Source of the DNA: Candidatus Bathyarchaeota archaeon
GTDB taxonomy: Archaea; Thermoproteota; Bathyarchaeia; 40CM-2-53-6
NCBI GenBank assembly: GCA_963733055.1
Contig: CAVTBR010000002.1
Location: forward strand, 192,001 to 256,000
Direction of reading: 5' to 3'
DNA: 64,000 bases
Below are positions 9,861 to 47,223 of the stretch, piece by piece. The notes below the pieces were generated by a model that saw only the letters and a list, made by a program, of their open reading frames with translations, did no database searches and was not told the origin of the DNA. The stretch's first letter is position 1, and every line of letters starts with the position of its first letter. The position numbers and the translations under genes were made by a program.

Positions 9861-9977
9861 TGGCGCCGGGAGAGGGATTTGAACCCTCGAGGCCCCAAAG
9901 GACCACAGGCTTACGGTTCCATGATTCCAGGCTTAGGTTTCGAGAATCTGCCCCTTACCAGGCTAGGGAACCCCGGC
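9861..9977 (-). tRNA. tRNA-Ser(GGA) with two predicted introns (9933-9947 at 29/30; 9912-9924 at 37/38)
   Basis: GCCGGGG/TCCCGGC acceptor, G discriminator, encoded CCA, long variable arm, TTCAAAT loop; stem CAGGC/GCCTG is restored only after removing both inserts. Confidence 0.8.
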
Positions 9978-45034: not shown

Positions 45035-45604
45035 TTGAATCCCATGCTACCAGGGTTGGAGGAGATTGGAAGGCGACGCCGGCTCCTAGCGATGAGTCAG
45101 AAGAAGCTGGCCAACCTCGCAGGTATCAGCCAGTCTATGATTGCGAAAATCGAGAGTAAGAACATCAGCCCGTCATACTTGAAGACTAAGGCCATCTTTG
45201 ACACGCTCGAGAGTTTGGAGCGGAGGAACGAGCTAAAGGCTAAGGAAATCTGTCACGGAAAGGTTGTGAGTGTGCAGGCGCATGAGCCAATCTCGAGGGG
45301 GGTGCATTTAATGCGGGAGACGGGTTTCTCCCAGCTACCCGTCTTCAATGGAACCCAAGTCGTGGGAAGCCTTACGGAGAAGACGATTCTTCAGAAGTTA
45401 GTGTCGTCCCCCAAACCCGAGCTAACCGCGAAAGGGGAGATTGAGACGATAATGGACGAGGCCTTCCCGCTTGTGAATGAGGTTGCACCGGTGTCGATGG
45501 TTTCTGCGCTGCTCCAGTATGAGCCTGCGGTGCTCGTTGTTCGGCGTGGACACGTGTTGGGCATAATCACGAAAGCGGATTTGCTGAAGGTAATTGGATC
45601 CTAA
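45035..45604 (+). CDS. XRE-family HTH plus tandem CBS-domain transcriptional regulator
   Basis: MSQKKLANLAGISQSMIAKIES HTH; FSQLPV and GIITKADLL CBS motifs. Confidence 0.93.
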   Translation: MNPMLPGLEEIGRRRRLLAMSQKKLANLAGISQSMIAKIESKNISPSYLKTKAIFDTLESLERRNELKAKEICHGKVVSVQAHEPISRGVHLMRETGFSQLPVFNGTQVVGSLTEKTILQKLVSSPKPELTAKGEIETIMDEAFPLVNEVAPVSMVSALLQYEPAVLVVRRGHVLGIITKADLLKVIGS

Positions 45605-46821
45605 CTTGATGTCTTTCCCTTTGCGGCCGCGACGATATTGACGACATCTCGGTCTTTCAACTTGTAATCTTTCGGAAGACGAATCTTTGTTCGTGCATCA
45701 ACCGCGTAAATCATCGTCCTTGCTAACTCACTGTGAATCTGGGCGGCGAGGTCTGTTATGGAGGCGTTGTAAGGGACCAAGAAGGCGTCCGGAAGCACGG
45801 CTCCTTTTCGATCCGATAACTTCTCAGCGTCCTCAACGGGATAAACCGCGTTCATCCCGAGCAGTTTGAAGACGCATGTGTTTAGAGCGAACTGTACACC
45901 AGTCCGTATCCATTGCGAGAAAACGCGTTGCTCAACGTAGGTTAGCGCGTTTTGTTGTTCGAGCGTAAGTTTACTCTTATCTTTGACCTTGAAGGCTTCC
46001 TCACCGGGAACGTACTCAATATACCCCTGCTGTTCCGCCCTCCGAAGGGCGAGTTCAGCGTCGCTTGACGCGGGAATCACGAATGCCTGACCAAACTCTT
46101 TGATCAGCTTCTCATAGTTCTTCTCACCTAACGCGATGTCCATCTTGTTTGCCACGATCAGTGTTGGCTTTGAGATTTCGCGCACGCTCTTGGCGAAATT
46201 CCAAACATCTTGCCGGGTCCACTTCCCCAAGTCCTTGTCGGTGAGGTTCGTTGCGTTGAGTGCTTGCGTTATGTGAGTTGGAGTGATCTTCATTCCGGCT
46301 AAGTCTTGCGCGAAGAGGTGGTCTACGGTTGACCCTTTCTTTGAATGGTTCTTCACTTTTCCGAGTGTCTTCTCGACCGATTTTGAATACCAGCGTACAA
46401 TTTCTTCCTCAATGTCGTAAACGTCGGCGACAGGGTTGCCCATGCCGGGCTTGGTGAGTTTTCCATCAGCGTCTAAGCTGGCTGAGGCGTCTGCGATGTG
46501 TATGAGAGCGTCCGCCTGGGATGCGACGCTTAGGAATTGCGTTCCTAAGCCCTTTCCCTCCCACGAGCCTTTGATCAGGCCGGGGAGGTCAATTAGTTGG
46601 ATTGGGATGAAACGGGAGCCGTCGATGCAGGTTGAGTTTCGCGGATTGTCCTTGACGCCCAGTTCTTTGCATACGCAGATTGTCTTTGCATTGGATTGGC
46701 CGATGTTGGGTTTCTTCGTGGTGAAGGGGTATGTGGAGACTTCTGCGGTTAGGAGGGTTGCTGCGTTGAAGAACGTTGTTTTGCCGGCGTTTGTCTTACC
46801 GATGAGTCCTATCTTGAGCAA
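45601..46821 (-). CDS. ychF: Redox-regulated ATPase YchF (Obg-family GTPase) with TGS domain
   Basis: GKTNAGKTT, YPFTT, DLPG, NKMD, IHSEL. Confidence 0.93.
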   Translation of the reverse strand: MLKIGLIGKTNAGKTTFFNAATLLTAEVSTYPFTTKKPNIGQSNAKTICVCKELGVKDNPRNSTCIDGSRFIPIQLIDLPGLIKGSWEGKGLGTQFLSVASQADALIHIADASASLDADGKLTKPGMGNPVADVYDIEEEIVRWYSKSVEKTLGKVKNHSKKGSTVDHLFAQDLAGMKITPTHITQALNATNLTDKDLGKWTRQDVWNFAKSVREISKPTLIVANKMDIALGEKNYEKLIKEFGQAFVIPASSDAELALRRAEQQGYIEYVPGEEAFKVKDKSKLTLEQQNALTYVEQRVFSQWIRTGVQFALNTCVFKLLGMNAVYPVEDAEKLSDRKGAVLPDAFLVPYNASITDLAAQIHSELARTMIYAVDARTKIRLPKDYKLKDRDVVNIVAAAKGKTSS

Positions 46822-46941
46822 GGACCTTCAGGAGAAATTCATCTTTGGGGAGTATTATACGCGTTCCCTCATATTCAGCCATAACCGTTATAGCAACTCG
46901 TTGAGGGTCAGGTGCTGGGGCCGACCCTGTCCAACCGATGT

Positions 46942-47164
46942 GGGGCCGTAGTCACTCCGAGGGAGTGGCGGTGTCTAGCCAGGGATGACGACAGGGATAC
47001 GTACCCGCCAAGGGCTCCAGAAGACCAAACCTTAACGGGTTTGCGGACCTGAACGGAATGACGAACTTCAGGAGCGAAGAAACCCGTAGACATGACGGTA
47101 TGGCGGAAGTCGAGGGTTCAAAATGGTTCACGGCCGAACCATGAGAGTCCCTTCGGCCCCACCA
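46942..47164 (+). tRNA. tRNA-Trp(CCA) with five predicted introns (46952-46973, 46993-47011, 47021-47081, 47090-47108, 47123-47147)
   Basis: The spliced product GGGGCCGTAGTCTAGCCAGGGATGACGACGGGCTCCAGACCCGTAGGTCGAGGGTTCAAATCCCTTCGGCCCCACCA folds as a normal cloverleaf; each insert is bounded by BHB-like bulges. Confidence 0.85.
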
Positions 47165-47223
47165 CATGCATCAAACGAGTCCTTATATTCATATTAGAGC
47201 ACAGGCTGTAGAGGCGTCATGAG

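Follow-up and report, generated by a model that had tools for sequence, protein, structure and literature searches.

Introns of archaeal transfer RNA (tRNA) genes number no more than three per gene according to the reviews and the tRNAscan-SE 2.0 paper, and for Thermoproteales the stated per-genome maximum is 71 introns in 46 tRNA genes (PMC8450103, PMC4033280). For Asgard archaea, as many as five intervening sequences in a single tRNA gene are reported in a preprint dated 15 Oct 2026 (bioRxiv 10.64898/2026.10.13.758758), with about 2.2 intervening sequences per tRNA gene, many of which lie in the D-arm and are missed by the standard annotator (bioRxiv 10.64898/2026.10.13.758758; Nat Commun 2024). 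Here we describe a tRNA-Trp(CCA) gene at positions 46942-47164 (+) of a 64,000-nucleotide (nt) stretch of Candidatus Bathyarchaeota archaeon DNA (assembly GCA_963733055.1, contig CAVTBR010000002.1, positions 192,001 to 256,000; hereafter the window). With a probability of roughly 0.9, we consider this locus to be the genome's single functional tRNA-Trp(CCA) gene, with five endonuclease-type introns, that is spliced and processed as proposed below. A preliminary description made from the sequence alone had placed five introns at or beyond the known maximum, which holds against the three of the reviews and of the tRNAscan-SE 2.0 paper; the number matches the newest claim, made for Asgard archaea, without going beyond it. 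Full-text literature searches for four or five introns or for tRNA introns of Bathyarchaeia retrieved no archaeal case above three introns besides the Asgard preprint, in the accessible text of which "Bathyarchae-", "leader" and "tRNA-Trp" are absent.

Read directly from the locus, the six exons join to a 77-nt product with encoded CCA that ARAGORN calls as tRNA-Trp(cca) over its full length (1-77; see Table 1 for exons and introns). Its stems are those of a regular tRNA, with an acceptor stem of 7 base pairs (bp), an anticodon stem of 5 bp, a T-stem of 5 bp including one G-U pair, and A73. The usual 13:22 non-pair of the D-stem is the sole non-pair in any stem, and the cloverleaf template (U8, A14, GG, U33, R37, G53, TTCRA, C61) is satisfied throughout. 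We thus confirm the gene, its isotype, its five introns and their junctions as first proposed, together with all exon and intron coordinates and the presence of two exons of only 8 to 9 nt (exon 4 with 8 nt and exon 3 with 9 nt). It had also been anticipated that standard tools would overlook such a gene, and this is indeed so for ARAGORN, which finds no tRNA in the unspliced locus with its intron option on or off, and for the Rfam tRNA covariance model, which has no match at the unspliced locus at gathering score or, in a search of the whole genome, at an expect value (E) up to 10. The segment 46900-47200 likewise matches nothing in Rfam at E up to 10, partial tRNA and C/D families included.

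Every one of the five junctions follows the second base of its 3-nt bulge, and the two bulges of each intron flank a helix of 4 positions, which is the arrangement of the bulge-helix-bulge (BHB) motif. Each intron has, besides this central helix (H), at least one flanking helix (the exon helix h or its counterpart h') of at least 2 bp. The helix and bulge strings of the preliminary description are exactly those that we compute, including the string CCGT/GCGG shared by introns 1 and 4. Its 4-bp central helices stand for introns 1, 4 and 5, which have 4/4 pairs; introns 2 and 3 have 3/4 pairs each, with an A.C and a C.A non-pair, respectively.

Table 1. Features of the tRNA-Trp(CCA) locus and its surroundings in the window; tRNA positions refer to the mature molecule.
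Feature	Coordinates	Strand	Length	Details
Obg-like GTPase gene	45601-46821	minus		upstream of tRNA-Trp; Pfam YGR210-like, MMR_HSR1, TGS
TATA-like hexamer (putative archaeal promoter)	46888..46893	+		~24-29 nt 5' of leader copy
Leader copy (putative first transcript bases)	46917..46923	+		7/7 identical to tRNA positions 1-7
Leader spacer	46924..46941	+		length and sequence vary among orthologues
Exon 1	46942..46951	+	10 nt	tRNA positions 1-10
Intron 1 (10/11)	46952..46973	+	22 nt	HBh'; H 4/4, h' 6 bp, h 2 bp
Exon 2	46974..46992	+	19 nt	positions 11-28
Intron 2 (28/29)	46993..47011	+	19 nt	relaxed BHB; H 3/4 (A.C), h' 2 bp, h 1 bp
Exon 3	47012..47020	+	9 nt	positions 29-37, anticodon CCA inside
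Intron 3 (37/38, canonical)	47021..47081	+	61 nt	h 3 bp = anticodon stem, H 3/4 (C.A), no h' (0 bp)
D' guide and C-N-G-A D'-like box (predicted)	47035..47047	+		complementary to positions 38-43; from alignments
C'-like box A-T-G-A-N-G-A	47058..47064	+		kept in all Bathyarchaeia orthologues shown
D guide and degenerate D-like (G-A) box (predicted)	47066..47080	+		10 nt against 31-37 and first three intron bases
Exon 4	47082..47089	+	8 nt	positions 38-45
Intron 4 (45/46)	47090..47108	+	19 nt	HBh'; H 4/4, h' 4 bp, no exon helix (h 0 bp)
Exon 5	47109..47122	+	14 nt	positions 46-59
Intron 5 (59/60)	47123..47147	+	25 nt	full hBHBh'; h = T-stem 5 bp, H 4/4, h' 6 bp
Exon 6	47148..47164	+	17 nt	positions 60-73 and encoded CCA
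502-aa open reading frame		 		downstream of tRNA-Trp; no Pfam match

The strongest support for this gene comes from its relatives. The locus is matched in 36 of 41 genomes searched (its own counted), and identity among the matches listed ranges from 84-100% within the genus to 69-79% in other families of the order. A pattern scan across one genome per prokaryote species returned 116 loci, and spliced alignment of the 74-nt mature sequence to all loci gave 71 genes with no more than four mismatches to it. These represent 53 distinct precursors from genomes titled Bathyarchaeia, 51 of which encode the CCA. Intron number in related genomes, named as a check in the preliminary description, is on its side: 38 of the distinct precursors have five introns and 15 have four. 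When position sets are counted by the mature nucleotides that precede each intron, the set of the studied gene (10, 29, 38, 46, 60) is shared by 30 distinct precursors. Six others have a D-loop intron replacing the one at 10/11, seven lack any D-arm intron (one of them with an ambiguous last boundary), five lack the 45/46 intron, three lack the 59/60 intron, and two have five introns with an ambiguous last boundary. Intron presence thus varies by lineage at 10/11, 45/46 and 59/60, and the five-intron state is no one-off, being stable across a whole class of archaea from soil and sediment.

In alignments of the orthologues, the exons stand out as invariant blocks between variable introns, for which we count 39, 41, 44, 31 and 40 distinct sequences (introns 1 to 5) in which the central helices persist; for introns 1, 2, 4 and 5, h' is also far longer than in shuffled introns. 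Intron 1 keeps 4/4 central pairs in 40/40 orthologues across its 39 distinct sequences and has changes on both sides at all 6 pairs of h'. Intron 2, present in 53/53 orthologues, has its A.C replaced by A-U in 17 genes that thereby reach 4/4 central pairs, and one of its h' pairs co-varies in 10 of 30 sequences. All 48 orthologues that have intron 4 show a complete central helix, with co-variation at three h' pairs, and intron 5 retains an h' of at least 3 bp in 40/40 distinct sequences (against 5.9% of shuffles) with four co-varying pairs. Across the 30 five-intron precursors, the BHB structure comprises 14 pairs with changes on both sides and reaches a covariation score of 0.167, compared with at most 0.062 when partners are slid by one to three columns, and none of 500 shuffles reach 0.167; the slid-partner control is the safer of the two because relatedness inflates shuffle tests. 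RNAalifold run on the 30 precursors reproduces only the h' of intron 5 among the BHB elements, and the pairs were therefore counted on our own BHB structure. Outside the class, the canonical intron is the only one in the scanned tRNA-Trp loci of other Thermoproteota (Desulfurococcales, Sulfolobales, Ignicoccus, Thermogladius and others), whose single-intron homologues obtain 54.8-56.4 bits from the Rfam tRNA model.

Two further groups of loci deserve separate mention. Loci titled Nitrosocaldus or Nitrosopumilales (L037, L042, L046, L057, L071, L144 and L147) have introns at 28/29 (20-23 nt) and 37/38, and the 28/29 intron may thus be older than Bathyarchaeia or have originated twice at one position; they were left out of our counts for their higher mismatch numbers and likely end artefacts. 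Two loci titled Methylomirabilota and Acidoferrum (L054 and L058) contain a five-intron Trp gene with 0 mismatches to the studied gene and are probably mis-binned archaeal contigs.

A second conserved feature lies upstream of the gene, where the 5' strand of the acceptor stem is present a second time in the leader. This copy starts 25 nt 5' of the studied gene and 11-26 nt 5' of its orthologues, and its occurrence follows that of the D-arm introns. It reads GGGG[CT][CT] in 40/40 Trp orthologues with the 10/11 intron, 29 of them exact in the first six bases and 11 with C-to-T changes only, which still pair with G. None of the seven Trp orthologues without any D-arm intron has it, and the genes with a D-loop intron show a GGGGT(C/T) copy further upstream (4/6) or a GGAG(C/T)CG variant (2/6). 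Other genes of the same genome with a 10/11 intron also have copies of their own acceptor strands, exact at -12 for Cys and at -15 for Glu-CTC and 6/7 at -16 for Glu-TTC (near contig 3 162650 and 664907 and contig 1 1437919); a 7/7 match occurs in 0/16 genes without a D-arm intron. Among the respective orthologues, which like those of the Trp gene are kin and not independent, the copy is exact in 19/20 sensibly aligned Cys genes (10 loci with nonsense alignments were dropped) and in 17/18 Glu-CTC genes with the 10/11 intron, the remaining one being a C-to-T variant, compared with a copy in 1/11 Glu-CTC genes without this intron. One Glu-CTC orthologue (L202, genome G022) has kept the upstream copy with no 10/11 intron in the alignment, possibly through recent intron loss or an alignment slip. 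That three different acceptor sequences are matched by their own copies may be regarded as covariation of a kind. Since an A/T-rich box lies ~25-30 nt 5' of the copy both in the orthologues and in the genes for Cys and Glu, transcripts probably start at the copy itself (46917).

Partition-function folding hints at what this element might do. Without a leader, the acceptor stem forms with a probability (P) of 0.95-1.0 and the central helix of intron 1 with P of 0-0.12. With the native leader, the copy pairs with the 3' acceptor strand (positions 66-72) at P of 0.82-1.0, and the central helix of intron 1 reaches P of 0.93 for Glu-TTC, 0.48 for Trp and 0.99 for Glu-CTC, with 0.00 for Cys; shuffled leaders give intermediate values (0-0.46). 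Tentatively, and with the odds in our view slightly against it, we propose from this modelling that BHB introns borrowing acceptor nucleotides (positions 5-8) could exist only because a decoy of the acceptor 5' strand stands at the start of the transcript. This decoy would sequester the 3' strand of the acceptor and leave the true 5' strand free for the endonuclease substrate, would keep the 10-nt first exon tethered until ligation, and would then be discarded by RNase P. A thin literature search returned no mention of an upstream acceptor copy in the accessible texts, and on that basis the leader copy is a new, previously undescribed element.

The genome encodes the machinery that such a precursor would need. 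Two EndA paralogues each have both EndA domains, one of 185 amino acids (aa), for which chain B of the Aeropyrum pernix endonuclease is the nearest match (entry 3p1z, E 3.6e-39), and another, divergent one of 188 aa, which would correspond to the layout of (alpha-beta)2 enzymes if subunit roles are taken from similarity. Among EndA types, just (alpha-beta)2 and epsilon2 cut non-canonical introns (PMC5829648). RtcB, RNase P RNA (176 bits), fibrillarin and Nop5 are also present. We propose that, in a transcript beginning at the upstream copy, a heterotetramer-type EndA would cut every intron two bases into each 3-nt bulge, RtcB would join the exons and RNase P would remove the leader.

The motifs themselves suggest an order for these events. 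The central helix of intron 1 uses positions 5-8 of the acceptor stem, that of intron 2 positions 23-26 (the 3' strand of the D-stem) and that of intron 4 positions 40-43 (the 3' strand of the anticodon stem), of which 40-41 are shared with the exon helix of intron 3 (39-41); introns 3 and 5 alone are compatible with mature-like arms. Because introns 1, 2 and 4 draw on mature-stem nucleotides for their motifs, local hairpins would have to form one after another along the precursor to begin with, with the leader copy proposed to hold the 3' acceptor strand meanwhile, and refolding to the cloverleaf would come later, which would make intron 3 late. The ordered splicing expected in the preliminary description is thus something that we, too, infer, from motif nucleotides shared with mature stems and between introns 3 and 4. 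ViennaRNA gives the central helices of introns 2-5 probabilities of ~0, whether it is run on the full precursor or on any of the partly spliced forms tried, which says nothing about order because nearest-neighbour energies penalise bulges. Late removal would suit an intron that must first act as a guide, as may be the case for intron 3.

Judging by its alignment with the canonical Trp intron of other Thermoproteota, intron 3 is the ancestral canonical intron of this gene, and it contains a box C/D-like element (Table 1). By hand count, the fifth base upstream of the D'-like box, which reads CTGA in many orthologues, pairs with C39, and the fifth base upstream of the D-like box pairs with C34 in the studied gene; this latter count fails where a family has a 4-nt insert ahead of the D-like box. 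The D-guide helix is recovered by RNAalifold (columns 105-114 with 162-171) as nine pairs with one unpaired A.A and is invariant save for one pair with a compensatory change, and a co-varying hairpin separates the D'-like and C'-like boxes. A terminal C box is unrecognisable, the D and D' boxes are degenerate, and Rfam has no match to the intron at E up to 10. We predict from these complementarities that intron 3 directs 2'-O-methylation of C34 and C39, which it might do before or after its excision. The same box C/D-like architecture is seen in the canonical Trp introns of Desulfurococcales, Sulfolobales and Nitrosocaldus.

Several observations weigh against reading the locus in this way. Sites that satisfy the relaxed BHB rule number 3.8-3.9 per base across the genome. 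Our finder, which fits a cloverleaf template to genomic DNA while skipping intervals that meet this rule, started from 93,281 CCA sites that a T-arm filter reduced to 199 sites with 94 acceptor anchors and gave spliced solutions accepted by ARAGORN at 44 loci; 14 of these have five or six introns, meaning that 13 non-Trp solutions of this kind emerged from the same relaxed search. Two of the five central helices contain a non-pair, with the C.A of intron 3 kept in 48/53 orthologues, and ViennaRNA assigns the central helices of introns 2-5 a probability of ~0 in the naked precursor. Contigs from four metatranscriptome runs show the unspliced locus only and no joints, with exons of 8-19 nt being unplaceable by this method, and the survey of the genome that found no second Trp gene would miss a split or permuted one. 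With the relaxed motif this common and 13 other solutions at hand, the five-intron pattern by itself is unconvincing and not beyond chance, and the locus could then be an artefact of a permissive motif or a decayed relic in a genome where an undetected gene decodes Trp. Yet 11 of the 13 other solutions lie inside open frames of 172-1127 codons, and each of the 13 shows mismatched stems, A/U-rich acceptors or near-threshold motif scores; at the Trp locus, given acceptor anchors only, the five intervals first described are the best of 14 solutions. Neither ARAGORN, Rfam nor the BHB-aware survey, which needs an encoded CCA or a seed, found another Trp(CCA) gene in this 96% complete genome of three contigs, a second intact tRNA-Trp elsewhere, together with a lack of spliced reads from this locus, being what the preliminary description had named as evidence against its case. 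What establishes the tRNA-Trp gene is that its exons are (nearly) invariant across the 71 genes and its introns diverge with conserved or co-varying helices, and we regard chance or decay as extremely unlikely.

The other two alternatives accept the gene and differ on its processing. One is that the weaker intervening sequences, namely intron 2 and the 5' site of intron 3, are cut otherwise than via the BHB drawn here, be it in another register, in a structure formed after earlier splicing or under guidance by a box C/D ribonucleoprotein. These two introns indeed have the lowest motif scores (9 on the finder's scale) in addition to their incomplete central helices, the helix between the intron 3 guide and the anticodon loop (nine pairs and A.A) competes with the BHB helix, and the tRNAscan-SE authors note that the BHB of some introns forms only after removal of a neighbour. 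The invariant exons nevertheless fix the boundaries, such that only intron 3 can be shifted, by one base, with the same product, and the non-pair of intron 2 is an A-U in other families; different cutting of these introns is in our estimate very improbable. The other alternative counts six intervening sequences, with the upstream copy as the true 5' end produced by initiation and the spacer plus second copy as an intron at about 7/8. The copy is exact, its place is where the A/T-rich box would put a start site, its predicted pairing with the 3' strand resembles a genuine acceptor stem, and removal of 25 nt at any of eight registers would give the same mature sequence. Nine registers examined for such a sixth intron gave none with a product-preserving BHB, the best having 3/4 central pairs and nearly no flanking helix, and the only register with 4/4 pairs would place an A at position 8; RNase P RNA is also present and could remove the leader in the usual way. 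We accordingly give the sixth intron only a slim chance and retain a gene with five introns behind a leader.

The fragmentation of tRNA-Trp is part of a genome-wide pattern. In 2.88 Mb, the Rfam model scores 13 tRNAs above its cut-off, and our BHB-aware survey with subsequent filtering gives a partial set of 30 credible CCA-bearing tRNA genes with 70 introns, distributed as two genes with none, six with one, eleven with two, four with three, five with four and two with five. The second five-intron call, "Arg(acg)", lies inside a 464-codon frame and was judged spurious, leaving Trp as the only credible five-intron gene; four introns are found in Glu(TTC), Gln(CTG), Pro(GGG) and Cys(GCA), and a four-intron "Thr(tgt)" call is doubtful. 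Three further genes lack CCA and have two or three introns. Of 19 seed loci, 13 yielded no solution in the finder, five of these being above the Rfam cut-off, and the resulting ~2.3 introns per gene are therefore a rough lower bound. One of the three genes lacking CCA is the locus at contig 3 position 707572, which ARAGORN reports as another "Trp" and which proves to be Asn(GTT) with 3 introns. The locus at contig 3 527886-528141 (-) shares its last 31 bases (T-arm, acceptor 3' strand and CCA) with the Pro(GGG) gene at contig 3 546744-546926 and is probably another heavily interrupted Pro gene, although the solution that the finder gives for it lacks credibility. With standard tools seeing only 13 tRNA genes, tRNA counts of Bathyarchaeia are an unreliable basis for judging genome quality, codon usage or decoding.

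In the window, the only Rfam tRNA match is at 9864-9977 (-), where 114 nt scoring 32.1 bits must contain introns; ARAGORN labels this locus Ser(cga) with a 26-nt intron, and our finder gave no solution there. Small open reading frames overlapping the tRNA-Trp locus have no Pfam match and are taken as spurious. Examples of unspliced RNA contigs from within 46900-47200 are 46915-47083, 46963-47130 and 47054-47165. Several RNA contigs end at 47083-47086, from which we draw no inference, contigs being uninformative on RNA ends and levels. In run X17, a 109-letter contig with a depth figure of 1106 covers 47001-47086 and runs into adapter sequence, spanning the end of intron 2, exon 3, intron 3 and the start of exon 4; the 5' part is covered by contigs whose depth figures are 4-65, and contig depth cannot rank the parts of the gene.

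Taken as described, the gene raises the highest intron number documented for a tRNA gene in Thermoproteota from three to five and offers a compact natural test bed in which one endonuclease faces five sites that are not all compatible with the cloverleaf. If the decoy proposal is true, the leader copy would represent a pre-tRNA folding switch of a new, cis-acting class, would account for the tolerance of Bathyarchaeia towards four and five introns per tRNA gene, and would go along with tRNA sets that are among the most interrupted known. A functional decoy would also provide a simple rule for the persistence of introns near the acceptor stem; the persistence of D-arm insertions is a question left open by the recent Asgard census.

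Compared with described systems, the locus combines features that are known from different lineages. Thermoproteales such as Pyrobaculum, Thermofilum and Caldivirga likewise have non-canonical endonuclease-type introns with strict or relaxed BHB motifs, a heterotetramer-type EndA and similar helix strings that recur between introns (here in introns 1 and 4), but their genes are described with at most three introns, in contrast to five in this Bathyarchaeia lineage. In Haloferax volcanii and other Euryarchaeota, the 37/38 intron of pre-tRNA-Trp guides 2'-O-methylation of positions 34 and 39 in its own tRNA, C34 and U39 in Haloferax (PMC4090602), and the guide complementarities of intron 3 together with the fifth-base rule point to the same positions 34 and 39; unlike the Haloferax intron, intron 3 has only 61 nt, no recognisable terminal C box and degenerate D and D' boxes. 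The red alga Cyanidioschyzon merolae combines D-arm, 37/38 and T-loop introns in one gene, and reverse transcription polymerase chain reaction on a three-intron tRNA has shown that the outer introns leave before the one at 37/38 (PMC3728597), which is the order proposed here. That case is from a eukaryotic nucleus with no more than three introns per gene (the multi-intron phrases in the paper count positions, not introns per gene; PMC3728597), and its order was established by experiment whereas ours is deduced. The tRNA genes of Asgard archaea reach the same maximum of five; what the tRNA-Trp gene of Bathyarchaeia adds beside them is occurrence in another phylum, conservation across a whole class, and the leader copy of the acceptor 5' strand.

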